Notes under the pieces: model-generated
Databases searched by the model: none
What the model was told of the DNA's origin: nothing
The model's input: only the letters and a program-made list of their open reading frames with translations
Shown: positions 9,373-27,781 of the stretch, piece after piece
Numbering within the stretch: the first letter of the stretch is position 1
Layout: the number at the start of each line of letters is the position of its first letter
Translations under genes and position numbers: made by a program
Assembly: GCA_964648835.1 (NCBI GenBank)
Contig: CAZYLR010000003.1
Coordinates: 1,302 to 33,354, forward strand
Length of the DNA: 32,053 nucleotides
Source: an uncultured Candidatus Saccharibacteria bacterium
GTDB lineage: Bacteria > Patescibacteriota > Minisyncoccia > Phycocordibacterales > Zambryskibacteraceae
Reading direction: 5' to 3'

Positions 9373-10469
9373 TTTTTGGATTCTTGATAGAAGCGTCTTA
9401 TCTGATTTGTAATGTTAATGATTTTGTCTTGTACCAAAGAATAGTGCACTGGTAGCGACAAGGATTCCTCCGCAATTTCTTCAGCAATCGGAAAATCGCC
9501 GGTTTTGTATCCTAGGGTTTTAAAAGCGGGAAGATACGGCAACGAAACTGCATAAGGATTCATTATGCGTATCCCGAGCTTATGCAAAAAGTCTGTCAGC
9601 TCTTTTTTCCTTTTGGTGCGTATAGAGAAACGATATCCATTCGTGAAATAGTTGGAACGTTCTTTCGGTAGTATCAGATCACCGACTCTTTTAAGAAGTT
9701 CCTGATACAAAAAATAATTTTCGCGCTGTTTTATTACATGCGATTCAAGAAATGGAAACTGTACGTTCAAGACTGCCGCGTGAAACGAACTTAACCGACT
9801 TGCAACACCGATAATTGCGTTGTTTGAGTGGGATTCTTTCAGAGTCGGCGCGCCATAGGTACGCATCATGGATATTTTCTCCGCTAGAGCCTTATCATTC
9901 GTAAAGACCATTCCCCCATCACCGAACCCATTGAGGATCTTAGTGTGATTTAAACTCAAACATATTAAATCACCGAATTGCCCTATCGATTTATCTTTGT
10001 ATCGTGATCCGACGGCCTGTGCCGCGTCAACAATTACTCGCAAGCCATGCTTTCGCGCAATTTCCAGAATAGGATCCATGTCCACCATTTTGCCGTCTAG
10101 ATGAACCGGTAAAATGGCTTTAGTTTTTGGCGTAATAACTGCCTCTATTTTCGAAACATCAATGTTGAATGTTTCCAAATCTACATCAACAAAAACCGGT
10201 GTCGCGTTTACCCAAGCAATAGCGCTAGCAGATGAGAAAAACCCGACTGTCGGCGTAACCACCTCGTCTCCCGGCTCAATGTCGCAGGCCTTAAGCGAAA
10301 GTATGAGCGCGTCAGTCCCGCTCCCAACACCGAATGCGTATTCCGCGCCGCAAAACTTGGCCAATTTTGTTTCTATCTCTTGTACCTCCCTCCCAAGTAT
10401 AAAATCCTTCTGGCGGATAACAGTCCAGAAAGCTAGGAGAATTTTTAGGTTTAAAAATTGATTAATCAT
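9369..10469 (-). CDS. DegT/DnrJ/EryC1/StrS PLP-dependent sugar aminotransferase
   Basis: SGTDAL, PVFVDV, PVHL.G, DAAQAVG, SLNHTKILNGFGDGG (catalytic Lys). Confidence 0.93.
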   Translation of the reverse strand: MINQFLNLKILLAFWTVIRQKDFILGREVQEIETKLAKFCGAEYAFGVGSGTDALILSLKACDIEPGDEVVTPTVGFFSSASAIAWVNATPVFVDVDLETFNIDVSKIEAVITPKTKAILPVHLDGKMVDMDPILEIARKHGLRVIVDAAQAVGSRYKDKSIGQFGDLICLSLNHTKILNGFGDGGMVFTNDKALAEKISMMRTYGAPTLKESHSNNAIIGVASRLSSFHAAVLNVQFPFLESHVIKQRENYFLYQELLKRVGDLILPKERSNYFTNGYRFSIRTKRKKELTDFLHKLGIRIMNPYAVSLPYLPAFKTLGYKTGDFPIAEEIAEESLSLPVHYSLVQDKIINITNQIRRFYQESKN

Positions 10470-10513
10470 TAATATGTTATATGCACTTTTTATAGTTTGT
10501 TATACTAGCATTT

Positions 10514-12964
10514 ATGTACCATTTTAGCAGAGCGTTCAAGCTGTTCACAATGATCCAGAATAAGGGGACAACCTACAAAGAATTGATAGAATTCTTGTAT
10601 GGCGAGACCCCACCCACGAATCATGATTTTTTGGCAAGAATTAATCCGTCTGTGGTTACGGAAACAATTAAATCGAATGCTTACGACGAAAAGGTATGTT
10701 ATGAAGAAAATCCAAATCCGAACGCTACGATCGGATTCCTGATCGAATATCCCTTTCACTACTATATCTATAAAAACATTTATCCGCATTTACCTGAATC
10801 GGAATTTATCGTTGATGCGATTTGGATACGCAGGAATGTAAAAAATTGGGAGGAACTCATCGAGGGTTTTACAAAATTTCTTAATGTCGAAAAAGTGCGA
10901 TTTCGTATTTTTCATACCGGGCTGGACGCCGACGAATTTTTTAAGAATTACCAAATACTGGTTTCCAATACCAATAAACCCATTCTTGATCTACCCTGCA
11001 ACCAGAAGAAGAAAAAAGTTCGAGTGATGTACGGACATAGCAAAGACCTTTGGAACTTCGGCCCTTGGTCGCGCGTTTTTGATCTCGCGCTCGTTTACGG
11101 GCCATACAGCCACAAGTATGTCCGCAATTATACCCACAGCGTCGTAGTGGGAAACGCCCGGTTTGACGGCTGGTTTAGCGGTGAAGTAGATAAAGGCATT
11201 CCTGCAGATCTAAAAAAACGTTTAGATCCCCATAAAAAAACCATTTTATATTTACCCACCCACGGCAATCTTTGTTCTTTGGAGTTTATTACAGTAGCGA
11301 TGCCGGAGTTGCTTGCCAATTACAATTTCATCATTAAACCGCACCAATTGACCCTTTACGCTGACCCAGAGCGGCTCGATAAATTCCGCCAATTTATTAT
11401 AGATGACCCAAACAGCGAACGGATTATATGGGTGGATGACTACTCCGATCTTGTCGGTTTGCTTGCTGCCTCGGACGTAATCATCTCGGACAATAGCGGC
11501 GCCATCTTTGACGCGGTACTACTTGATAAGCCGATAGTGCTTATTGATACCTTGACTGATCAATTTTTCGAAAAAGAGATGTGGAACATCGAAAAGCGCG
11601 GCAAGGATGTTTGGGATATTCCCTTATCATATCCCGGTAGTATTGAACAGCAAATCAAGCATGATAAACAAATGCAAGTCGGTGAGAATGTCAGAGACGC
11701 TCAGGAACTGTCCGATGCTATCGCGCACGCGCTTTCCGGCATTGAACGTGAAGCAGGCCGCAGAAAACGTATCAAGGATCTAATTTTTTCTTATCGGGAC
11801 GGGTCATCGGGCCGGAGGTCGGCGAGTGCTATCAGATCTTTGGTGAAATCAGAATCGAGAGAGAAAACATTCCTAGCATTACAAGCCGAGATGGAGGTCT
11901 CGAGAAATACTATTTTTTTAAAAGAGATGATAGCTGATTTGCAGCGCGTCGCACGTTCATACTTTAGGGTATCCCCTTTATACGAAGAACGTGACGGTCT
12001 AAATTTAGTGCAGTTTAGTATTATTGTCCCAACTTTTAACAATTGTGAATCGTTGGAAGATACTCTAAATTCACTGGTGAGACAGCGTGATATAGAAAGG
12101 AGATCATTCGAAATTATTGTAGTTAATGACGGTTCCCATGATGCCACGACGGAAGTGGCGCGGAAATTTATTCGAGATCATCCGCAACAAAAAATCCTAT
12201 ATTTAAAATATCCTCAAAATAAAGGCGCGGGGTTTGCGAGAAATACGGGCATTTTGCGTGCGAGGGGAGATTATATCGCTTTCACCGATGATGATTGCAT
12301 AGTTCCACTCGATTGGCTGGTTAATTTCCAAAAGGATTTTGAAGAGAATCCAGAAGTTGTCGGCGTCGGCGGGTGGCATCAGTGGCACAAAACAGCGAAC
12401 GCAAAAAAGTTAAGCATAGTTGGAAAATATTTGGCATGGCAGGTGTCTCCGATGGAAAAACTTCCCAATAAATCTTTTAGATGGGCGGAGACTAATATTT
12501 GCGGGAATACTTCCAATGTTTGTTATCGTAAATCTGTGTTAAAAGAAGTTGGGGGGTTCAGTCACTACTATCCCGCAGCTACTGTGGAGGACACGGAATT
12601 GGCAATCCGAATTCATAAAGCAAAATTTCAACTACTTTACTTGCCGCGAATGGTTATGCATAAGAAAAAATATTCTTTACACGGTTTTGTAAAGAATAAT
12701 CTATTGCGTGGGTTAGCAAACCATATTACAAGTAAAATTCACCCTGATTATAATTATCTTTTCAATATTTCTGGCTGGAACGGACTGTTTATCTTGTGTA
12801 GAAACTTGATACATATCTTCAGTTCTAAATTCGGCGCGGCGCCTTTGCGTTTCCCCGAAAGATTTCTATTTGCTGGTATTTCTATACTAATGAATTTTTG
12901 CCTTGTAATTGGTAAATATTCCACTGCCATGGCTGTTCTCAAGAAAAAGACTCAGCCGCATTGA
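10514..12964 (+). CDS. CDP-glycerol glycerophosphotransferase (TagB/TagF-like) fused to a GT2 glycosyltransferase
   Basis: GNARFD, ILYLPT, IKPH, DVIISDNS motifs; then IIVPTFN, VNDGS, ARNTG, FTDDD, EDTEL. Confidence 0.88.
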   Translation: MYHFSRAFKLFTMIQNKGTTYKELIEFLYGETPPTNHDFLARINPSVVTETIKSNAYDEKVCYEENPNPNATIGFLIEYPFHYYIYKNIYPHLPESEFIVDAIWIRRNVKNWEELIEGFTKFLNVEKVRFRIFHTGLDADEFFKNYQILVSNTNKPILDLPCNQKKKKVRVMYGHSKDLWNFGPWSRVFDLALVYGPYSHKYVRNYTHSVVVGNARFDGWFSGEVDKGIPADLKKRLDPHKKTILYLPTHGNLCSLEFITVAMPELLANYNFIIKPHQLTLYADPERLDKFRQFIIDDPNSERIIWVDDYSDLVGLLAASDVIISDNSGAIFDAVLLDKPIVLIDTLTDQFFEKEMWNIEKRGKDVWDIPLSYPGSIEQQIKHDKQMQVGENVRDAQELSDAIAHALSGIEREAGRRKRIKDLIFSYRDGSSGRRSASAIRSLVKSESREKTFLALQAEMEVSRNTIFLKEMIADLQRVARSYFRVSPLYEERDGLNLVQFSIIVPTFNNCESLEDTLNSLVRQRDIERRSFEIIVVNDGSHDATTEVARKFIRDHPQQKILYLKYPQNKGAGFARNTGILRARGDYIAFTDDDCIVPLDWLVNFQKDFEENPEVVGVGGWHQWHKTANAKKLSIVGKYLAWQVSPMEKLPNKSFRWAETNICGNTSNVCYRKSVLKEVGGFSHYYPAATVEDTELAIRIHKAKFQLLYLPRMVMHKKKYSLHGFVKNNLLRGLANHITSKIHPDYNYLFNISGWNGLFILCRNLIHIFSSKFGAAPLRFPERFLFAGISILMNFCLVIGKYSTAMAVLKKKTQPH

Positions 12965-18362: not shown

Positions 18363-18734
18363 ATGGTTAATAGAACAGAAAAAAGGAAGTTAGGAGATAT
18401 CGGGGAAAATATAGCTTGTGATTTTTTGAAAAGTAGGGGATTTGAAATTATAGAAAGAAATTATCTTAGAAAATGGGGGGAGATAGACATTGTCACCAGA
18501 AAGTCTAATCTTATTCATTTCATAGAAGTAAAGAGCGTTACACATGGAACATCTGAATACAGGCCTGAAGATAATATGCACCCATGGAAACTGAAGCGGT
18601 TATCACGAGCTATGCAAACGTATTTATTGGACAGAAAGCTAGATTGCGACTGGCAATTAGACCTCGTAACGGTCAAAATTGACCAACAAAACCGAAAGGC
18701 AAGGGTGGAAATAATCGAAAATGTGATTATCTAG
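18363..18734 (+). CDS. yraN: YraN family (UPF0102) PD-(D/E)XK protein
   Basis: G.IGE.IA..FL, ERNY..KWGEIDIV, FIEVK. Confidence 0.95.
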   Translation: MVNRTEKRKLGDIGENIACDFLKSRGFEIIERNYLRKWGEIDIVTRKSNLIHFIEVKSVTHGTSEYRPEDNMHPWKLKRLSRAMQTYLLDRKLDCDWQLDLVTVKIDQQNRKARVEIIENVII

Positions 18735-18805
18735 TGCGGGATACCGTAATCGAAACGGTGACTACAGTTTGGAAAACTGTCGTTTTGCCACTAAACTAAT
18801 CCCGC
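18735..18805 (-). tRNA. tRNA-Gly(TCC)
   Basis: Cloverleaf GCGGGAT/ATCCCGC, anticodon arm ACAGT-TTTCCAA-ACTGT; no encoded CCA. Confidence 0.93.
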
Positions 18806-18912
18806 GAGATTTAAATGTATCAGAATAAGAGTAGCCATTCAATTTATCGGATTAACTGAAGTTGAACTGTTGATAAATTACCCCGGTAAAAATGCTATGA
18901 TTTTAGAGTGTC

Positions 18913-18983
18913 CGGGCCATGGGGTAGTGGTAGCCTACATCTATGGGGTAGATGCAGCGGCGGTTCAATTCCGCCTGGCCCGA
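18913..18983 (+). tRNA. tRNA-Pro(GGG)
   Basis: CGGGCCA/TGGCCCG-A, anticodon arm CATCT-ATGGGGT-AGATG, T loop TTCAATT. Confidence 0.93.
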
Positions 18984-19850
18984 GTGAAAACAACAACGAT
19001 AAGATGTGCTTTTTGCAAGAGCAAATTTGTTCGACCGATAGGTCGATACAGAGAAGCTATTAAATTTAAATGGAAACAATACTGTTCCCCAAGCTGCAAA
19101 CACAAAATTAAAATTCGAGCTAAAGAGTTTAAATGTGGAAATCCAAATTGTAGTAATACAGTTTTTAAAACCCCATCAGATATTAGACGGAGTATATCTG
19201 GAAGAATGTACTGTTCTCAAACATGTGCAGCGATATATAACAATCACAACAGAGCCAAATATAACACTTGCAAACGTTGCGGAAAGACTATCTCTAGTTG
19301 GAATAAATACTGTTCCTCTAAATGTGCGGCAGACAATAGAAAAAAATCATTAGACCAAACTCGATTCGATGCTATTGCAAGGATAAGAAAGTTCTACAAA
19401 TCCTATAAACGAATTCCGGTGAAACGTGAGATGTATGGACTGTATAGAACAGCTAGAATTGCTTTTGGTTCTTGGAATAAAGCCGTAGAGGCATCGGGAT
19501 TTGATCCAAACCCAGTTTTATTTGCGAAAAGATTTGTTGCTAATGATGGGCATGCCTGTGATTCATTTGCTGAAAAGGTTATCGATGACTGGCTATTAGA
19601 AAATAATGTTCTGCATGAAAGACATTATCCTTATAGCAATCCGCGTTTCACGGCTGATTTCAAAATCGGTGATAATACCTTTGTTGAATATTTTGGCCTA
19701 GCTGGAGTACAAAGATCCTACGATGAAATCATTTCAAAAAAGAGAGCAATGTCAGACAAATCTGGGATTAGGTTAATTGAGTTGTACCCAAAGGATATTT
19801 ATCCAACAAGTAAACTTAAAAACATTTTAGATAGGCTTATTGAAATTTAA
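18984..19850 (+). CDS. Zn-finger protein with a homing-endonuclease-associated repeat and a C-terminal PD-(D/E)XK-like nuclease domain
   Basis: Three CxxC...YCSxxC fingers; FGSWNKAVEASG repeat; DGH.CDS.AE..ID.WL...ADF......VEYFG; start moved to GTG 18984 because the ORF-track 5' end overlaps a tRNA. Confidence 0.8.
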   Translation: MKTTTIRCAFCKSKFVRPIGRYREAIKFKWKQYCSPSCKHKIKIRAKEFKCGNPNCSNTVFKTPSDIRRSISGRMYCSQTCAAIYNNHNRAKYNTCKRCGKTISSWNKYCSSKCAADNRKKSLDQTRFDAIARIRKFYKSYKRIPVKREMYGLYRTARIAFGSWNKAVEASGFDPNPVLFAKRFVANDGHACDSFAEKVIDDWLLENNVLHERHYPYSNPRFTADFKIGDNTFVEYFGLAGVQRSYDEIISKKRAMSDKSGIRLIELYPKDIYPTSKLKNILDRLIEI

Positions 19851-19851
19851 T

Positions 19852-19922
19852 TCGGGCCGCTGGGAATCGAACCCAGTCCTTACGCTCCCAAAGCGCAAAT
19901 ACTACCGGTATACGACGGCCCG
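19852..19922 (-). tRNA. tRNA-Pro(TGG)
   Basis: CGGGCCG/CGGCCCG-A, loop TTTGGGA, GGTTCGATTCC. Confidence 0.95.
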
Positions 19923-19944
19923 CCTACGCCAAGGCTACGGCGGG
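19919..19944. repeat. REP-like hairpin abutting the tRNA 5' end
   Basis: CCCGCC-TAC-GCC-AA-GGC-TAC-GGCGGG. Confidence 0.55.
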
Positions 19945-19982
19945 TAAGCCCGCTTAACCTTTTCACTTCGGGATTTCAAAAT

Positions 19983-20053
19983 TCGGGCTGCCGAGAATCG
20001 AACTCGGGTCTCACACTCCCGAAGCGTGTATACTACCGCTGTACTACAGCCCG
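19983..20053 (-). tRNA. tRNA-Pro(CGG)
   Basis: CGGGCTG/CAGCCCG-A, anticodon arm CACGC-TTCGGGA-GTGTG. Confidence 0.95.
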
Positions 20054-20139
20054 TAATGAGGAACAGCGCTCATGCTCGCATGAGCATTGTTTCCGAACGC
20101 CCGGGCTGTATGTATTCATACAGCCCGTAATGAGAAACA
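20045..20139. repeat. 21-bp direct repeats flanking a palindromic insert at the tRNA-Pro(CGG) 5' end
   Basis: TACAGCCCGTAATGAG(G/A)AACA at 20045 and 20119; internal hairpins. Confidence 0.75.
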
Positions 20140-20214
20140 ATTTATCCTATCACGCAAGATAACGATTTCCAAATATCGATTTTTTATCTAAATAAGCTGT
20201 TATCTCTTCACTTT

Positions 20215-20340
20215 TCAGGAGCCGATAATCTGGTCATTCTTTGGGTGTGTTTTCTTCCACCAGCGAATCAACAATATCCGCAGACCATATGCCAGCAAAA
20301 GAGGAATGATAATGAAAATAAGCGCAATAATGAATCTCAT
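20215..20340 (-). CDS. 41-aa membrane peptide (below the ORF-track cut-off)
   Basis: MRFIIALIFIIIPLLLAYGLRILLIRWWKKTHPKNDQIIGS*, starting 12 nt after the upstream stop. Confidence 0.6.
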   Translation of the reverse strand: MRFIIALIFIIIPLLLAYGLRILLIRWWKKTHPKNDQIIGS

Positions 20341-20352
20341 ATATTTTGTAGT

Positions 20353-22158
20353 TTAAGGGGCACCACCGGCGCTGCCAGCGCCTCCGGGACCATCTCCAGC
20401 TCCTGCGCCATCTCCAGGTCCGCCACCAGCTCCGGCGCCACCTCCAGCGCCGGCACCACCACTAGTTCCTGCATCACCAGGGGGACCGCCCGGTTCGCCT
20501 GATTGACCACTTGTAGGACCTGTGGGACCGCTGACACCCGTATCTCCAGTTTCTCCAGTTTCTCCAGTTTCGCCCTGCTCGGCGGTAACGGCTGTATCAA
20601 TGTCTGCGGGAGTTAGGCCGGTATCGTCAGGATCATTCCCGCCACCCCTAGCACCCATAGGCCCAAAACCAAAGAAGCCTCTGACCCCATTTATTGCACT
20701 AGTAGCGAGATTTCCAAGCGCAGCTAACGCTCCGCCAAACGCGGCATTGATCGCACTGCTGATTGCGCCGTTAAAAGCAGCATCCGCGATTGAAACAACG
20801 CCTAGCGCCAATCCGAAGGGACCGAGGGCGAGAGCAGCTATTGCCAAAGCTATGTTAAGTCCGAACGCCGCATCACTGGTCGGACCAGTACCTAGTCCTA
20901 CTGCGCTGAGCGCTACACCAGTGACAGAGTTGTTTATTCCAAAACTAACCGCGTTGCTAAAAGAAAAACCACTAGATGTATCACTGCTTGATGGCGCCGT
21001 TCCGGTTCCGCCAGTCGCATCTGGACCATCTGGAGGAGCATTAGAACCAACATCTGGCGCGCCTACTCCTCCAGTAGGTGTGCCTGTAACTGCGCCGCCA
21101 GTCGCGTCCGGACCATCTGGGGGAGCGGCATCACCAGAAACGCCCGGGGCGCCTACTCCGGTAGGGGCAGATGGCCCTGTAGACCCGGTATCGCCATCCC
21201 CACCCGATGCCGTCGGTTCGGGAGCGGGCGCTGACGAAAGTTCCAAAACATCTTCAATGGACCATCCGTCGACGCCCGAATCGAAATTGACCTGATACCA
21301 ATTGTATCCGTTTGCCGCAGATGGCCCCGAGACGATTATGCCTAATATCCCAATGGATTGAGTGCCTAAAAGAGTTCCCGCGGTAGACGGAGTTGTTCTG
21401 ACATTGACGTTTTGAGTCACTCGCACCCTGTCTCCGACTCTAAATTTGGCGCTAAGTTCAGTGCTCGGAGCAGGAGCGGGAGAAAAAATCGAAGTCCCAT
21501 AGCCCGCAGACTGATAGACGGGCAGTTGAGCCGGGACACCCTGAAATGCGGCATAGTAATAGACGTCACCATTCCTATTATCCGTTAATCCGACTGTAAA
21601 ACTCCCTGTCGTCGTGCCACTCACAGTCGCAAAAAGCCAACCAGAGCTACCATCTCCCAACAAAGTGGTAGTGCGCTTCGTCCATACTAAACTCGGCTGG
21701 AAACCGGTTGTAATAACTCGCGATGCCGTGCCATCGCCCGTATACGAGCCGACGCATATCACACCTCCCGATGAACAATCAGAGCCAGCGAACGCGGTGT
21801 ACGTGTAGCTGACACTAGCGGTATTGACTTCTGGGTCTGGCGATACCGTAAATCCATCTGCTCCTAAGATGATTTCGGATCCCGTGCTACCAGAGGCGAG
21901 GGTAGCGGGCATAGCAGACGATTTCCACATTAAGTTCAGCGAGGCACCAGATTTTATAGTGACTACTTCCGGCGCGAATCCGAGCCCGGATATAGAGAGA
22001 CTCGAGCCGTTACCGTTGTAGGAGCCTGACTTAACCGCAAAAGCGACTGACGCCTCCGCGCTTGGAGCGGTAACGAGCGAGTAAATGCCCGTCGACGCCA
22101 CGGTAAGCGCAAAAATCATCCAAGCTGTGAACACCTTGTTTTTAACAATAGGAAACAT
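20353..22158 (-). CDS. Secreted/surface Gly-Pro-Ala-rich protein with a bacterial SH3 domain
   Basis: Signal (AEA-S); two GSY.G.G...I..GF.P..V..K repeats; SH3b-like VNVRTTPS...WYQV.F..GV.GW; hydrophobic Gly-zipper region; acidic Gly-rich tail. Confidence 0.8.
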   Translation of the reverse strand: MFPIVKNKVFTAWMIFALTVASTGIYSLVTAPSAEASVAFAVKSGSYNGNGSSLSISGLGFAPEVVTIKSGASLNLMWKSSAMPATLASGSTGSEIILGADGFTVSPDPEVNTASVSYTYTAFAGSDCSSGGVICVGSYTGDGTASRVITTGFQPSLVWTKRTTTLLGDGSSGWLFATVSGTTTGSFTVGLTDNRNGDVYYYAAFQGVPAQLPVYQSAGYGTSIFSPAPAPSTELSAKFRVGDRVRVTQNVNVRTTPSTAGTLLGTQSIGILGIIVSGPSAANGYNWYQVNFDSGVDGWSIEDVLELSSAPAPEPTASGGDGDTGSTGPSAPTGVGAPGVSGDAAPPDGPDATGGAVTGTPTGGVGAPDVGSNAPPDGPDATGGTGTAPSSSDTSSGFSFSNAVSFGINNSVTGVALSAVGLGTGPTSDAAFGLNIALAIAALALGPFGLALGVVSIADAAFNGAISSAINAAFGGALAALGNLATSAINGVRGFFGFGPMGARGGGNDPDDTGLTPADIDTAVTAEQGETGETGETGDTGVSGPTGPTSGQSGEPGGPPGDAGTSGGAGAGGGAGAGGGPGDGAGAGDGPGGAGSAGGAP

Positions 22159-22306
22159 GTACTTAATATTGTACTACTTTTTTATAAAGTGAAATATAAA
22201 TCAAATCACGCAAGTTGGGGACAACCAAATATAAATAAGTAGATTTTTAAAGGAAAAAATGTTAATTTGGATGGGCCTATTGGCAAAAGATCTTTTGAAA
22301 AATGAA

Positions 22307-22377
22307 GCGGGTATGGTTTAGTGGTAGAACAGTTGGTTGCCAATCAGCTGGCGGGAGTTCGATTCTCCCTACCCGCA
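22307..22377 (+). tRNA. tRNA-Gly(GCC)
   Basis: GCGGGTA/TACCCGC-A, loop TTGCCAA, GTTCGATTC. Confidence 0.95.
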
Positions 22378-22406
22378 CAATTTAATAGAGGTCTGATAAT
22401 AAAATT

Positions 22407-22478
22407 GCCCCCATAGCTTAACGGATAAAGTACCCGTCTTCGGAACGGGTGATCTGGGTTCGATTCCTGGTGGGGGCA
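22407..22478 (+). tRNA. tRNA-Arg(TCG)
   Basis: GCCCCCA/TGGGGGC-A, anticodon arm CCCGT-CTTCGGA-ACGGG, A20 present. Confidence 0.93.
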
Positions 22479-22502
22479 TTTGAGAAAAATGTCTAATTTA
22501 TA

Positions 22503-23978: not shown

Positions 23979-24020
23979 TTTCACAAGACTTTGGCTACAT
24001 ATTATCCTAAGTTTAGTCTC

Positions 24021-24056
24021 TACATCTAATTCATACTATCGTGAGTTATAGATGTA
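24021..24056. repeat. 36-bp palindromic repeat, copy 1
   Basis: TACATCTAATTCATACTATCGTGAGTTATAGATGTA. Confidence 0.85.
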
Positions 24057-24084
24057 TGGGTAAAGAGACAACTAAGAGATTGAT

Positions 24085-24651
24085 TTATAAGAGACCGAAA
24101 TATTCTCGTAAATGTTTGTCGTTCTCAATTTCATCGACAATCATATAGAGAAGGTCTTTCCCAATACCAATATCTGTTTTCAAAAGTCCCACAATGTCTT
24201 CACAATCATATGGATAAACCCAGACACTATCTTGCAAACGATAGAAGCCAGCCGAAATAAAGACACTACGAATTTGATCACGTGCTTTTCTTTTTTTCTC
24301 CGGAATATCAAAGATAACAACTCGCCATTTCTTGTCCCACTTAGGCGGACGTTTGAATTTATAATCTTCAAGTTCCCAATGCCTTAATTTCTTTTCTCCC
24401 ACCTCGGTCAGTTTATATCTGTTGTCTTGGTACATGAGCAACCCCTTTTTCACCAATTTACTTGCTGAAGAACGCACAATCTCTTCTTGACGTTTGTTGG
24501 GGAGAAGGCCGAGTTTTCCCATAGCCCCTATCACTTGAGGAGCAACTAACCCAATACTCAAAACCCCAGCAAGTTTCACCGAGTCTAGAATTAACTTCTG
24601 AATTTCCCCGCGCCTAACTCTTCTCTTATTATTTTCCTCTAGTTTGCCCAT
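24085..24651 (-). CDS. PaaX-like regulator (wHTH plus Cas2-like ferredoxin-fold domain)
   Basis: YKLTEVG wHTH; WDKKWRVVIFDIPE...RD.IR..F...GF.RLQDSVWVYPYDC; ATG 24651 preferred. Confidence 0.85.
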   Translation of the reverse strand: MGKLEENNKRRVRRGEIQKLILDSVKLAGVLSIGLVAPQVIGAMGKLGLLPNKRQEEIVRSSASKLVKKGLLMYQDNRYKLTEVGEKKLRHWELEDYKFKRPPKWDKKWRVVIFDIPEKKRKARDQIRSVFISAGFYRLQDSVWVYPYDCEDIVGLLKTDIGIGKDLLYMIVDEIENDKHLREYFGLL

Positions 24652-24686
24652 ACATCTATAATACACGATCGTGAGTTATAAATGTA
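24651..24686. repeat. 36-bp palindromic repeat, copy 2 (overlaps the PaaX-like -10 and start)
   Basis: TACATCTATAATACACGATCGTGAGTTATAAATGTA, 15/18 dyad matches. Confidence 0.85.
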
Positions 24687-24733
24687 GAGATGATGGTGTA
24701 GATATTAGATGGTTAATTTAATTTGATATGTGA

Positions 24734-25507
24734 CTATGCCGCTTGTGTTTTTTGTGCCTCATTTCCAAGAACTGATTCTTCACGAGACTTCCAGACCATT
24801 TCAAAAATTTGCCGCATAGTTTCTGCAATCGCTTCATTTTCGATAATAACACCCTGCAAATCTTTAAAGGCCATGATGCGTACAAAAGTGTCCCCGATTT
24901 CAATTGAATTTCTTGCGGAATAAGTCGTGGGAGGAACTATTTTCATAGTCCGACCGTATTCTTTATCAGTATCACGCCAGCGTTTGAGATTTGGATTATC
25001 AGGCACAATACCACGCACCGTGATGTGATCTTGCTTTAATCTCTCATTATAATCATCGAAAATCTTTAAAAGCTCAGGAGACGCGTCAGTTGCTTCAGCA
25101 TAGAATCCGACAATCTCTTTGTCCTTCATTCTCTCCACGCCATAAAGTGCAATATCTTCGATACCTCGTAACCCCTCAAAATAAAGTGTCTTCGGTTTTT
25201 CTCCACCAGAAGTCAAGGCCAAGAGTTCTGGCAGAGATTGTTTTGCGATTCTAAGACGCTCTTCGGCCTCACCGAAGAACTCTTCCGGCGACTTTGCCGT
25301 AAAGACTTGCTTCTTCGCATTGGGGATTTTGAGCACCAAGCCTTTCTTTCTAAGATCATCGAGCACCACATATACTGTCGGTCGTTTTAAGCCACTTTTC
25401 TCGGCCACGGCATAGGCGGTGGTTTGACCAAGACTAAGCAGAGCCAGATACACCTCGCTCTCTTTGGCACTAAGTCCTAGACTTCGTAAAGATTCTTCTA
25501 TTCTCAT
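24734..25507 (-). CDS. TrmB-family HTH transcriptional regulator 1
   Basis: LGLSAKESEVYLALL..G...A..VA..SGLKRPTVY..L..L..KGLV; YFEGLRGI; C-terminal A.TM.QIFE.VW; promoter TTGACT-N17-TACAAT. Confidence 0.9.
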   Translation of the reverse strand: MRIEESLRSLGLSAKESEVYLALLSLGQTTAYAVAEKSGLKRPTVYVVLDDLRKKGLVLKIPNAKKQVFTAKSPEEFFGEAEERLRIAKQSLPELLALTSGGEKPKTLYFEGLRGIEDIALYGVERMKDKEIVGFYAEATDASPELLKIFDDYNERLKQDHITVRGIVPDNPNLKRWRDTDKEYGRTMKIVPPTTYSARNSIEIGDTFVRIMAFKDLQGVIIENEAIAETMRQIFEMVWKSREESVLGNEAQKTQAA

Positions 25508-25626
25508 AAGCAACTGTATTGTATGTTATAGCAATAAAATAGTCAAGTTTTATGACTACTATATGAATAGTACTACAAAACACTCTATTTTATAAGCTTT
25601 TTTAGCTATATAGTCATAAGTAGTTA

Positions 25627-25655
25627 TTGACTATTAGCTTTGAATAGTATATAAT
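25627..25655 (+). promoter_or_regulatory. Sigma70 promoter, unit 1
   Basis: TTGACT-N17-TATAAT. Confidence 0.8.
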
Positions 25656-25722
25656 GTTTGCAGACTGAACATTGAAAGCCGATAAGCCCTGACCAGTAAT
25701 GGCAGGCACGGTACAGGAGACC
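25650..25722 (+). ncRNA. Conserved structured 5' leader, copy 1 (includes the -10 box)
   Basis: 70/73 identical to 27189-27260; GNRA-capped stem; ends in SD AGGAG. Confidence 0.6.
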
Positions 25723-25726
25723 AGTC

Positions 25727-26134
25727 ATGGACCTAAACAAGATCAGTTTTTTCAGGCCAGTTGTGGGCAAGACTCTTCGCGAGCAGCTCGAGGGCAAGAA
25801 CCTCGCAGGCCGCGAAGTGGTTGAATACCTTCGCTCCATAGGGGGCGAACGGTACGCGGAGTTCACTCCGCCCGCGCATTGGGAGAAGCCCTTCGGTCCT
25901 TCCAGCATGCAGTCTGGGGATCGCTGGGGTATCGACCTCCAGTGGATCTACGGCTTCTCTCTGACCCATTTGGACCCGCGCTCTCACAACACGGGGCGTC
26001 GTGTGAACGGGTTCGTCTGGACGGAGAAGTGGGGCTTCTCCTCTCATTACCGCCACTTTGAGGGCGACCCCCTCGATATGGTGGTAGGGAGAGAGTGGGA
26101 AGAGGGTGACTGGATCCTTGTCATTGACCCTTGA
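25727..26134 (+). CDS. GC-rich hypothetical cargo protein 1
   Basis: SD AGGAG, ATG, 135 aa, Trp/Gly-rich; a sampled line is about 63% GC. Confidence 0.75.
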   Translation: MDLNKISFFRPVVGKTLREQLEGKNLAGREVVEYLRSIGGERYAEFTPPAHWEKPFGPSSMQSGDRWGIDLQWIYGFSLTHLDPRSHNTGRRVNGFVWTEKWGFSSHYRHFEGDPLDMVVGREWEEGDWILVIDP

Positions 26135-26270
26135 CCACACGTAGTGTGAGCTACGTTAAAAATCTCACGGCGAAGTGCAATGCTTCGCCCGCTGTTCCGA
26201 GAGACTAATTCAAATTGGTTTTTCAGAAGAGCGAACCAAAAAATCTCTTTAAATCTCTTTGTTTCACCCA

Positions 26271-26306
26271 TACATCTAATTTGTACGACCGTGAGTTATA
26301 AATGTA
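26271..26306. repeat. 36-bp palindromic repeat, copy 3
   Basis: TACATCTAATTTGTACGACCGTGAGTTATAAATGTA. Confidence 0.85.
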
Positions 26307-26314
26307 GAGGATGA

Positions 26315-27091
26315 TTATGGATTTTTTTCAGCCATATTCCAGAGCATCATGAAAAACTGTTTATAGTTTTCGGCTACTGTTTCGGATTTAATGACATAGA
26401 CAAGTGGGGGAGTTAGAAAGCTATAGAATAGTACCAAATCTTTCCTTATAACCATATGCGTCACTCCTTGGGGCAAATCCTTCATAAACCTATGCTCCTG
26501 ATTTGACGGACGACCTATAACCTTCTCGTATAGTTCTCTTTCACTCTCATGACCTAAATAATAGACCTTGATATCTTTTTTATTCTTTTCCTCTAAATAC
26601 TCCTCGAGTTCGTCGCCCATAAGATCGGTAAATCCTCTAGAGTGTCCGCCTATAATAAACTCTTCGCCTCCTTTTTCGCTCTCATATACGTAATCCATCT
26701 CAAATTGTTGTATCTGTTTGGCTCCTTGCAGCACTTCAAAATCTTGGTCATTGTGAATGGCACTTATCTTATTGAGTTCATAGATAAGGTCGTTTGCCGC
26801 AATGCTTCTTTTGCGCGTAATCTTCTCAATCTCAAGAGGAGAGCGTGCTTTATACTTTTTATGCTTGCCGGAAGTAACCGCTTCGACCAAATTCAGATTC
26901 ATCAATTTTTCTAGAGCGACATAAACGTATTGTCTATGTAACCCGGTGCCGATAGCGATCTTGGATCCGCCGCTTTCACCGTTCTTTTGAAGTAAATACA
27001 GATACACTTCTGCTTCCGATCTTGAAAGACCCCAAGCAGTAAGGGTACTTACTAGGGGGTTGTTTTCTTTCTGTAATTTTCTATTTGTCAT
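26315..27091 (-). CDS. TrmB-family HTH transcriptional regulator 2
   Basis: GLSRSEAEVYLYLL, IA.GTGLHRQYVY.AL.KL..L.LV; C-terminal IKSETVAENYKQFF.MLW. Confidence 0.88.
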   Translation of the reverse strand: MTNRKLQKENNPLVSTLTAWGLSRSEAEVYLYLLQKNGESGGSKIAIGTGLHRQYVYVALEKLMNLNLVEAVTSGKHKKYKARSPLEIEKITRKRSIAANDLIYELNKISAIHNDQDFEVLQGAKQIQQFEMDYVYESEKGGEEFIIGGHSRGFTDLMGDELEEYLEEKNKKDIKVYYLGHESERELYEKVIGRPSNQEHRFMKDLPQGVTHMVIRKDLVLFYSFLTPPLVYVIKSETVAENYKQFFMMLWNMAEKNP

Positions 27092-27165
27092 AATATATAT
27101 GACAGTATATCAGAATATCTATAATATGCAATAATTTATGTCATAAATTAGTGTCATAATCTATA

Positions 27166-27194
27166 TTGACACATCAAGCCAGTTAGTCTATAAT
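27166..27194 (+). promoter_or_regulatory. Perfect-consensus sigma70 promoter, unit 2
   Basis: TTGACA-N17-TATAAT. Confidence 0.85.
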
Positions 27195-27260
27195 GTTTGC
27201 AGACTGAACATTGAAAGCCGATAAGTCCTGACCAGCAATGGCAGGCACGGTAAGGAGACC
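27189..27260 (+). ncRNA. Conserved structured 5' leader, copy 2 (includes the -10 box)
   Basis: Near-identical to 25650-25722. Confidence 0.6.
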
Positions 27261-27264
27261 GCAG

Positions 27265-27729
27265 ATGAAGATCCTGGTAATCGAAGACGACCCGAAGCAC
27301 ATGACCGACGCGAAGCAGTTTTTCGCGAGCCAAACCGGGGTCGAAGTCTCCTACCTGAAGCGTACGCCCTATCACCCGGTGTACGATGGGAGAGAACTTC
27401 AGCCTGGGAAGTACGACGGCGTCCTCTGCGACATCTACTTCTACGATGAACCGCACGGGGTCGCGGTCATGATGACCTGCAGGGAGCGCAACATTCCCTG
27501 CATCATGGTGACGGCGGGCTACCATCACGGCGATCGCTATAACTGGATCTGTATGATGGCCCGTGAGCTCCGTTGCCCTGAGATGGTCGACGCCTCGTCT
27601 GATCGTGAAAAGGAGGCCGACCGGAAAGATTGGGCGGAGGCCTTCGGTCAGCTGAAAAAGCTGATCGAGCGCGGCCCCTGCGGTGAACACGCAAGGTATG
27701 ACCGGTGCGTGTTTCACTCCTCCCTTTAG
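27265..27729 (+). CDS. GC-rich cargo protein 2: single-domain response-regulator receiver-like protein
   Basis: MKILVIEDD, VLCDIYF (acceptor Asp), IMVTA, later Lys; ATG 27265 follows SD AAGGAG. Confidence 0.75.
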   Translation: MKILVIEDDPKHMTDAKQFFASQTGVEVSYLKRTPYHPVYDGRELQPGKYDGVLCDIYFYDEPHGVAVMMTCRERNIPCIMVTAGYHHGDRYNWICMMARELRCPEMVDASSDREKEADRKDWAEAFGQLKKLIERGPCGEHARYDRCVFHSSL

Positions 27730-27750: not shown

Positions 27751-27781
27751 ACCACCGAATGAAGTTCGTTCGGTGGTTTTT
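27751..27781 (+). terminator. Intrinsic terminator after cargo 2
   Basis: ACCACCGAA...TTCGGTGGT followed by a T tract. Confidence 0.7.

Follow-up and report, generated by a model that had tools for sequence, protein, structure and literature searches.

A covarying hairpin next to the Shine-Dalgarno sequence of unrelated genes in patescibacterial cassettes and in phage- or plasmid-like contigs

A stretch of 32,053 nucleotides (nt) from an uncultured Candidatus Saccharibacteria bacterium of the phylum Patescibacteriota (GCA_964648835.1, contig CAZYLR010000003.1, positions 1,302 to 33,354 of the forward strand; hereafter the window, numbered from its first letter) carries nearly the same leader sequence twice, each time between a promoter and a different small gene. 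The question raised by this locus is whether the recurring leader is preserved as a structured RNA, as a sequence-only reading of the window had proposed, or as part of a larger unit that has been copied. The comparisons presented here indicate both. The hairpin within the leader is one member of a conserved family of structured elements in mRNA leaders, for which Rfam 15 has no match and which some groundwater bacteria of the candidate phyla radiation (CPR) share with phage- or plasmid-like contigs. The near-identity of the window copies, which sets in around the -10 box, is in turn the mark of reuse of a whole promoter-leader cassette and not of RNA constraint alone, since the same cassette is also common to other CPR contigs. 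New with this analysis are the hairpin family and its connection to phage-like contigs. The parts of the repeat are as follows, with bit scores from two covariance models of the hairpin, R1 and R2.

25645..25722, + strand: repeat copy 1 (-10 box, 5' leader, hairpin and Shine-Dalgarno (SD) sequence)
27184..27260, + strand: repeat copy 2
25678..25712, + strand: hairpin motif copy 1, GCCG-AUAAG-C-CCUG-A-CCA-GUAA-UGG-CAGG-C-A-CGGU (R1 62.1 bits, R2 48.2 bits)
27217..27251, + strand: hairpin motif copy 2, GCCG-AUAAG-U-CCUG-A-CCA-GCAA-UGG-CAGG-C-A-CGGU (R1 63.1 bits, R2 48.8 bits)
25715..25719, + strand: SD sequence AGGAG of cargo gene 1, read from the sequence, 2 nt 3' of the hairpin and 7 nt 5' of the ATG
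27253..27257, + strand: SD sequence AGGAG of cargo gene 2, read from the sequence

Throughout the family the hairpin is 35-40 nt long and built in the same way. An outer helix of 4 base pairs (bp) and free sequence (P1) is followed by an asymmetric internal loop in which R-UAA faces one base, a G-C pair, a one-base bulge (N), the helix CCUG/CAGG (P2), a bulged A and a variable capping hairpin (P3), so that the consensus reads P1 - R-UAAG-N-CCUG-A - P3 hairpin - CAGG-C-N - P1'. The sequence AGGAG stands 1-8 nt downstream of P1', and the ATG comes next. The fold that the sequence-only reading had drawn for the window (GCCG/CGGU, CCUG/CAGG, bulged A, CCA/UGG and a GNRA loop) recurs within the structure of lowest free energy for copy 1, and its support comes from covariation among homologues rather than from folding energy. 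The observation that the stem abuts the SD sequence likewise holds for copy 1 and for nearly all copies of the family. The GNRA loop is a correct description of both window copies (GUAA and GCAA); it is not conserved in the family, where loops such as UAAC, UCAC, ACA and AUC also occur.

The relatives on which this description rests were collected with search patterns and with two covariance models, which together yielded about 60 distinct copies in contigs from metagenomes and IMG/VR. A first scan of IMG/VR with a 19-nt pattern of the hairpin tip matched five stretches, three of which (L031, L034 and L035) look like chance and show no extension beyond the pattern. In the other two, the overlapping contigs L032 and L033 (G+C ~0.58), the match reaches far past the 19 nt, and both bear additional copies in which the tip helix is swapped for other, still paired sequences. 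A looser core pattern found 109 instances in 107 stretches of IMG/VR, mostly chance, with convincing copies in 3 contigs only. The search pattern built from the L032/L033 copies, TAAGNCCTGAN{5,25}CAGGCNCGGN{2,10}GGAG, matched 8 stretches from 3 contigs in IMG/VR and 117 stretches in metagenomes, the latter with 151 instances, 74 of them distinct. A P3 stem of at least 3 bp is present in 47 of the 74, whereas shuffling the inner segment 1000 times gave 9.1 on average and 19 at most. Two further features that the pattern does not impose, a 5' CCG positioned for P1 and an ATG 3-11 nt past the GGAG, are each found in 48 of the 74; all three features occur together in 41 distinct matches, and 19 have none of them. 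The sole locus of the look-alike class that was scanned, L168, is an alphaproteobacterial transfer-messenger RNA (tmRNA) that fits the pattern by chance. The listed set of 46 rows, with the 5' CCG and the ATG, excludes those that lack both. The covariance model R1, built from 12 CPR-type copies, gave 90 matches at E<=1 in 75 sources and 72 matches (62 distinct) at E<=1e-3 in 43 sources, many of which the pattern had missed.

The two window copies alone offered no covariation; among the collected homologues P1 and P3 covary around unpaired bases that are invariant. More specifically, 98.2% of 824 cells in the alignment of the 90 R1 matches are paired, against 22-42% when the partners are slid, and the covariation score was unmatched in 500 shuffles. 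The outer pair of P1 appears as GC (41), CG (8), UA (8), GU (7), UG (2) and AU (1), and the third pair of P3 as AU (17), CG (16) and GC (2), with no change on both sides at once in P2. The tip helices of the 46 listed rows include CCA/UGG, CUA/UAG, CCC/GGG, CCUC/GAGG, CAUC(C)/(G)GAUG, CCUUC/GAAGG, CGUCC/GGACG and ACCG/CGG, among others, and compensated variants of P1 include GCCG/CGGC, AUCC/GGAU and CUCU/AGAG. Three genomic cases illustrate the replacement of P1: within the same genus, model R2 found fully compensated helices in L274 (AUCC/GGAU, with TTGACA-17-TATAAT and a divergent TrmB-like gene of 252 amino acids (aa)) and L272 (CUCU/AGAG), and elsewhere in the phylum the core pattern found L297 (GUCU/GGGC). 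Each of the three retains UAAG-N-CCUGA ... CAGGC followed by AGGAG and ATG. Because G·U combinations outnumber A·C combinations in the paired cells by 15 to 2, the structure appears to be one of RNA, or at least of the sense strand.

In agreement with the expectation that no known family would account for the leader, Rfam 15 gave nothing on the repeat when the whole window was searched at gathering thresholds, no family between 25500 and 27400 at E<=10, and only unrelated tmRNA and tRNA at nine related loci at E<=5. Likenesses to a K-turn, a hammerhead and group II domain 5 were dropped after comparison by eye with the consensus of each. The structural part of the claim that the window holds a structured leader RNA was borne out; what needs correcting, apart from the GNRA loop, is any reading of the near-identity from near the -10 box onwards as constraint on the RNA alone.

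Window positions 25645-25713 and 27184-27252 align without gaps at 96% identity, and the match extends up to AGGAGACC at 25722/27260, copy 1 carrying one additional C. A near-identical repeat is therefore present twice, as reported, and these are the only full copies in the assembly (540,597 bases in 82 contigs, G+C 0.445, 78% complete). The shared sequence begins TAGT[A/C]TATAAT, which is 5 nt upstream of the -10 box and not exactly at it as the sequence-only reading had placed it, and the -35 boxes and their spacers are dissimilar between the copies. Differences inside the 73-nt repeat amount to two substitutions (25687 C/T and 25697 T/C) and an indel at 25714; all three were correctly seen to be unpaired, and they fall on the sites that vary family-wide, namely the N bulge, the second loop position and the linker that follows P1. 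A BLAST search with the 86-nt repeat against 60 relatives returned no full-length match, the best being 25 nt at E 0.0015. A third site, on contig 10 of the same genome, shares only the -10 box and the first downstream bases (TATAATGT..G.AGACTGAACATT). This partial promoter copy (~9768-10993, L003) lies ahead of a G+C-rich gene for a 388-aa membrane protein, which by eye contains a lytic-transglycosylase-like stretch and adjoins a small, likewise by eye, pilin-like open reading frame (ORF). The near-identity of the two window copies is best read as the probable result of recent copying of the cassette, a case of promoter reuse.

The remaining parts of the two window cassettes and the regulator genes divergent from them are the following.

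25627..25655, + strand: promoter of cassette 1, TTGACT, 17 nt, TATAAT (11/12 consensus matches)
27166..27194, + strand: promoter of cassette 2, TTGACA, 17 nt, TATAAT (12/12 consensus matches)
24734..25513, - strand: TrmB-family regulator gene 1, divergent from cassette 1 (Pfam PF01978, E 6e-18)
26315..27091, - strand: TrmB-family regulator gene 2, divergent from cassette 2 (PF01978, E 4e-12)
25727..26134, + strand: cargo gene 1, 135 aa, G+C 0.58, G+C at third codon positions (GC3) 0.72
27265..27729, + strand: cargo gene 2, 154 aa, weak receiver-domain likeness, G+C 0.58

Both promoters are of the sigma-70 type and near-perfect, with a spacer of 17, and predicted transcription starts lie near 25662 (AGAC) and near 27201. 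The string TATAAT-N6-AGAC is frequent 5' of G+C-rich genes in this genome, which makes that portion of the repeat a matter of promoter grammar and not of the RNA motif. The genome (G000) also has many small scattered genes with a GC3 of 0.7-0.8 despite an overall G+C of 0.445, mostly preceded by promoters of the type TTGACA-17-TATAAT-N6-AGAC. The two regulator genes are the only PF01978 matches genome-wide and are 26% identical to each other. In L155 and L181, close homologues of the first stand divergently ahead of this same leader, and a homologue of the second holds the equivalent position in L190. Both window copies thus combine a divergent TrmB-family gene, a near-consensus promoter and a G+C-rich cargo gene, an arrangement for which a full-text literature search gave no paper naming TrmB together with Patescibacteria or the candidate phyla radiation.

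The two cargo proteins (135 and 154 aa) have no similarity to each other, and the GC3 of their genes is 0.72-0.76. The first matched no Pfam, NCBIfam or PHROG family, and its relatives form a small family of 12 protein clusters; an AlphaFold2 model of it (pLDDT 80) was used for a fold search, which found nothing at E<=0.001 in PDB or BFVD. The second matches PF00072 at E 4e-4, under the curated cut-off, and its relatives in L155, L190 and L201 have the same leader hairpin; a terminator-like hairpin follows this gene at 27751-27777.

Beyond the window, the CPR-like contigs that carry the hairpin (L155, L181, L184, L190, L201, L203, L242, L247 and L274) have a G+C of 0.40-0.50, and two further records, L232 and L267, do not differ from the window copies anywhere in the stretch shown. 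Their layout is that of the window: TTGAC(A/T)-17-TATAAT, usually GTTTGCAGAC, 8-22 nt, the hairpin, the SD sequence and unrelated small G+C-rich genes. CPR-like contigs of this kind share TATAAT-GTTTGC-AGAC with the hairpin and the SD sequence before different genes, and a divergent TrmB gene is present at 7 of these further CPR-type loci. The second group of carriers consists of mobile-element-like contigs with a G+C of 0.56-0.60 (one at 0.42), three of which are IMG/VR records of 9-16% CheckV completeness. Here the hairpin stands ahead of primase, DUF3150, CobT-like, AAA_5 and Gp3-like genes and of many small ORFs, with up to 4 pattern matches in a 6-kb stretch (L186). For this motif-rich contig no DNA relatives were found among cultured phages or plasmids, and a protein search gave a single distant match, to a Salmonella record.

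The genes downstream of the hairpin are unrelated to one another. A Pfam family was matched by 9 of 41 (three receiver-like proteins and one each of AAA_5, Gp3-like, primase, DUF3150, CobT-like and DUF7568) and none by the other 32. Copies stand singly before such genes and, in mobile-element-like contigs, also in tandem arrays, of 5 hairpins with a period of ~50 nt ahead of a hydrophobic 23-codon ORF in L175, of 4 hairpins in L227, and of 3 hairpins followed by a tRNA gene in L182. In the two arrays that were read, L175 (590-900, - strand) and L182 (1540-1760, - strand), a shared, conserved long hairpin with a T-run (GGCGCAAGTCGCCATTG...TTTGCGCCTTTTTT) stands directly 5' of the array.

Cargo and leader are not co-inherited, because homologues of the 135-aa cargo gene in L024, L025, L026 and L027 carry other leaders, which neither R1 nor R2 matches, and because the upstream regions differ between L242 and L164, which share both gene and hairpin. 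Two of these other leaders, from distant CPR genomes (L024:2865-3003 and L027:2872-3003), share AGTTCTTTGAAAG followed by a hairpin of ~80 nt (AGTTGAGT...ACTCAAC) that folds much better than its shuffles (z -4.5, 0/200). Rfam 15 searched at E<=1 on L024-L027, L010 and L003 gave no match to the motif or to the L024/L027 leader. A near-threshold match to the DUF3800-IX RNA (32.6 bits against a gathering score of 36.8) lies at L024:4272-4331 (- strand), downstream of the cargo homologue, and adjoins a 250-aa ORF that starts like DUF3800 proteins. In the same order as the window genome, L010 (G056:C32, ~800-990, - strand) has TTGACA-17-TATAAT-N6-AGATTGAACATTGAAG, a perfect 14-bp hairpin, a long leader that partly reads N, and a G+C-rich gene; the bases at its predicted transcript start are similar to those in the window cassettes.

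As to function, the sequence-only reading had named a riboswitch, a protein-binding leader or a recombination handle, and the choice among these can be inferred only from the position and the conservation of the element. The reading favoured here, to which a probability of roughly 0.45 may be assigned, is that the hairpin is a protein-bound operator for translation or processing. In the cassette, a regulator of the TrmB family, encoded divergently, would gate a near-consensus sigma-70 promoter, from which a short 5' leader and the 35-nt hairpin lead up to the SD sequence of a swappable G+C-rich accessory gene. A trans-acting RNA-binding factor, probably a protein, would recognise the hairpin by its invariant unpaired bases, and binding of this factor beside the SD sequence would control translation initiation, local processing or stability, or several of these. 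Tandem arrays would act as cooperative or decoy sites, and the entire unit that runs from the -10 region to the SD sequence would recently have been copied, or have converged by recombination, before two different genes. The operator is preferred because the regulated genes have no common theme, because the position relative to the SD sequence is tight, because arrays suit cooperative or decoy binding, and because no alternative pairing of the SD sequence is conserved, the base preceding CCUG varying between U, C and A.

Several observations weigh against an operator of this kind. No trans-acting factor was pinned to the hairpin in this analysis. The three hairpins of L182 precede a tRNA gene and not an SD sequence, so that a purely translational role cannot cover all copies, and since the SD sequence lies outside the helix, there is no evident way for the RNA by itself simply to occlude it. 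Neither window copy stands out by its folding energy (z -2.1 and -0.8). Most members of the family were gathered with a pattern that fixes the core, so the invariance of UAAG, CCUGA and CAGGC is partly imposed; only the copies found by model (L272, L274 and array members) and the core-pattern match L297, in which P1 was left free, are freer tests of it. The pair counts, likewise, rest on an alignment fitted to the model. Lastly, the motif is rare, with none in 150 other genomes of the order under strict filters and about one convincing case (L297) in 400 genomes of the phylum, where the core pattern gave 27 matches in 25 other genomes against ~22 in a reversed control, which is chance level. 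In the same genus there are two convincing cases (L272 and L274) in 36 other genomes, and matches in G005 and G020 were unconvincing on inspection. Termination-reinitiation was rejected as a mechanism: an upstream ORF ends at the UAA or UGA of the motif in only 4 of 46 cases.

Other explanations have been put to the same observations. The hairpin could serve a reused cassette in a generic, structural way, by stabilising the mRNA or by insulating the SD sequence from upstream pairing; it would then have no specific partner, and its conservation would be due mainly to the recent common descent of a mobile cassette. This would fit the extent of identity in the window, which takes in the -10 box and the entire leader beyond the hairpin, the occurrence of TATAATGTTTGCAGAC and the leader in CPR-type copies across contigs, the stable helix next to the SD sequence in nearly all copies, and the documented reuse of promoters ahead of non-homologous genes, as described in PMC3575422. 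It is nevertheless unlikely. P1 and P3 are fully swapped with compensation around a fixed P2, fixed R-UAA and fixed bulged A, and this replacement holds between CPR contigs (G+C 0.40-0.50) and phage-like contigs (G+C 0.56-0.60), which is more than descent alone predicts; in addition, CPR cassettes have 8-22 nt of single strand ahead of the hairpin, which therefore does not protect a 5' terminus. Quite improbable is a small riboswitch aptamer that would respond to some general cellular signal and adjust how strongly the following gene is translated, even though invariant loop and bulge bases between helices upstream of an SD sequence are the usual anatomy of small translational riboswitches. 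The leader does have covarying helices around invariant bases in the internal loop and bulges, directly 5' of the SD sequence, and no known class in Rfam 15 matches it. Set against this, the functions of the regulated genes are incoherent, with no common metabolic or transport theme, alternative SD pairing is not conserved, and arrays of 3-5 copies before one gene or tRNA differ from the riboswitch arrangements that are generally known.

Equally improbable is an action as DNA, in which folded single strands or a patch of homology would serve as a recombination handle at cassette junctions for the exchange of cargo, after the manner of integron attC sites or of the promoter-early stem-loops (PeSLs) of T4-like phages. 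Many copies do mark the 5' junction of genes that are unrelated and evolve fast, the same cargo is found behind different upstream regions (L242 and L164) and the same leader before different genes, and the 135-aa family has other leaders elsewhere; moreover, conserved extrahelical bases and a variable tip recall attC, and PeSLs mediate such shuffling according to PMC2839356. These points are countered by the excess of G·U over A·C, by the strict co-orientation with the downstream gene and the fixed 1-8 nt to the SD sequence, and by arrays contained in a single leader, and no obvious integrase or recombinase was seen by eye among window ORFs of at least 90 aa, most of them without a family search. 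The least probable of these alternatives, by a small margin, is a promoter-proximal RNA signal for processive antitermination, as at phage nut or put sites, or a mark for endonuclease processing. The hairpin does lie 8-22 nt past the predicted start in CPR cassettes, and in L175 and L182 a TATATA box resembling a promoter and the long T-run hairpin come before the arrays, which in turn precede the tRNA and genes; yet most copies are inside operons directly before an SD sequence, which nut or put sites do not need, and the arrays stand downstream, not upstream, of the terminator-like hairpin.

Comparison with known systems places the element near several of them without identity to any. Phage translational operators, such as the T4 gp43 operator, the RegA targets and the MS2 coat-protein hairpin with its bulged A, are small SD-proximal hairpins with essential unpaired bases at which a protein represses translation, and RegA acts on many genes. 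The small hairpin with unpaired bases at or beside the SD sequence is common to these and to the present family, whereas the sequence and architecture differ, arrays and chromosomal CPR cassettes have no counterpart there, and the binding partner of the present hairpin is a postulated one. Integron attC sites are defined by R''/R' core sites (RYYYAAC ... GTTRRRY) with an integron integrase nearby; on inspection the motif consensus showed no GTTRRRY/RYYYAAC pair, nor was an integrase obvious by eye in the same set of window ORFs.

Closer in placement are the SAS/ESAS elements of Cluster K mycobacteriophages, which, according to PMC3203893, are repeated in one orientation a few bases 5' of the start codons of many non-homologous, non-structural genes. 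There an SD-containing box of 13 bp, GGGATAGGAGCCC, is preceded directly by an imperfect inverted repeat that has a spacer of variable length and a consensus specific to the cluster, and a role in translation initiation through an unknown host or phage factor is proposed (PMC3203893). The position before start codons of unrelated genes, the single orientation, the inverted repeat ahead of the SD sequence and the idea of such a factor are shared with the present family. The same account allows a SAS box at most 2 deviations from GGGATAGGAGCCC and places it 3-7 bp before the start codon; the window sequences GGTACAGGAGACC and CGGTAAGGAGACC show 3 and 4 deviations (10 and 9 of 13 matching, own count), the matches being mostly those of AGGAG, past which other members of the family diverge. 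The ESAS arms measure 17 bp and those of the present hairpin 12-15 nt, and SAS/ESAS are confined to one Mycobacterium phage cluster, in contrast to a motif with covariation in CPR chromosomes and in contigs of uncultured mobile elements.

PeSLs, as PMC2839356 describes them, are mobile cassettes ~100 bp in length that combine a strong promoter of the sigma-70 type with a stem-loop and with a 3' SD sequence and start codon; they are repeated before ORFans, are tied to cargo shuffling and act through DNA homology. The strong promoter, the SD sequence and ATG at the 3' end and the repetition before unrelated genes all recur here. The stem-loops, however, are of another kind: those of PeSLs are G-tract/C-tract terminators placed variably around the promoter boxes (PMC2839356), whereas the present hairpin is fixed before the SD sequence, has no T-run after it, shares the core UAAG-N-CCUGA...CAGGC with its invariant unpaired bases and covarying helices, and in many copies has no promoter. 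The two window copies are, finally, exactly a case of promoter reuse by putative mobile promoters, defined in PMC3575422 as highly similar 5' regulatory regions before non-homologous genes of one genome, but this concept of a DNA promoter leaves the compensatory conservation of the hairpin beyond this genome unexplained. A literature search by motif strings gave, among the matches listed, only unrelated primers and similar sequences, the supplements of PMC10690425, with structured-RNA candidates from viruses and phages, being outside its scope.

The CPR, or Patescibacteria, make up a large share of bacterial diversity and have not yet been grown alone, and their gene regulation is almost unknown. 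A small covarying RNA element is a concrete handle on the expression of accessory genes in these bacteria and their mobile elements; at 35-40 nt it is short enough for direct reporter and pull-down tests, and it could mark accessory or mobile genes in metagenomes. On a broader and rather doubtful view, the hairpin might be the address label of a post-transcriptional control system common to ultra-small CPR bacteria and to mobile elements or phages, in which an RNA-binding factor would read the UAA loop and the bulged A at each labelled gene and early-transcribed arrays of 3-5 labels would serve as timing decoys. CPR chromosomes would then have domesticated the label in TrmB-gated plug-in cassettes for horizontally acquired G+C-rich genes.

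Two further observations concern the surroundings of the cassettes in the window. A second repeat family is present in three copies (23994-24059, 24624-24689 and 26244-26309; 67-74% identity), each an inverted repeat TACATCTA ... TAAATGTA/TAGATGTA flanking a spacer of ~24 nt. It occurs on the 3' side of every minus-strand regulator gene, one copy overlaps the start of a PaaX-like gene (24085-24666), and the repeats may be operator or promoter relics or module boundaries. Farther upstream, at 18734-22479, six tRNA genes lie within 4 kb and are interleaved with small genes; they comprise all three tRNA-Pro isoacceptors (GGG, UGG and CGG), two tRNA-Gly and one tRNA-Arg.

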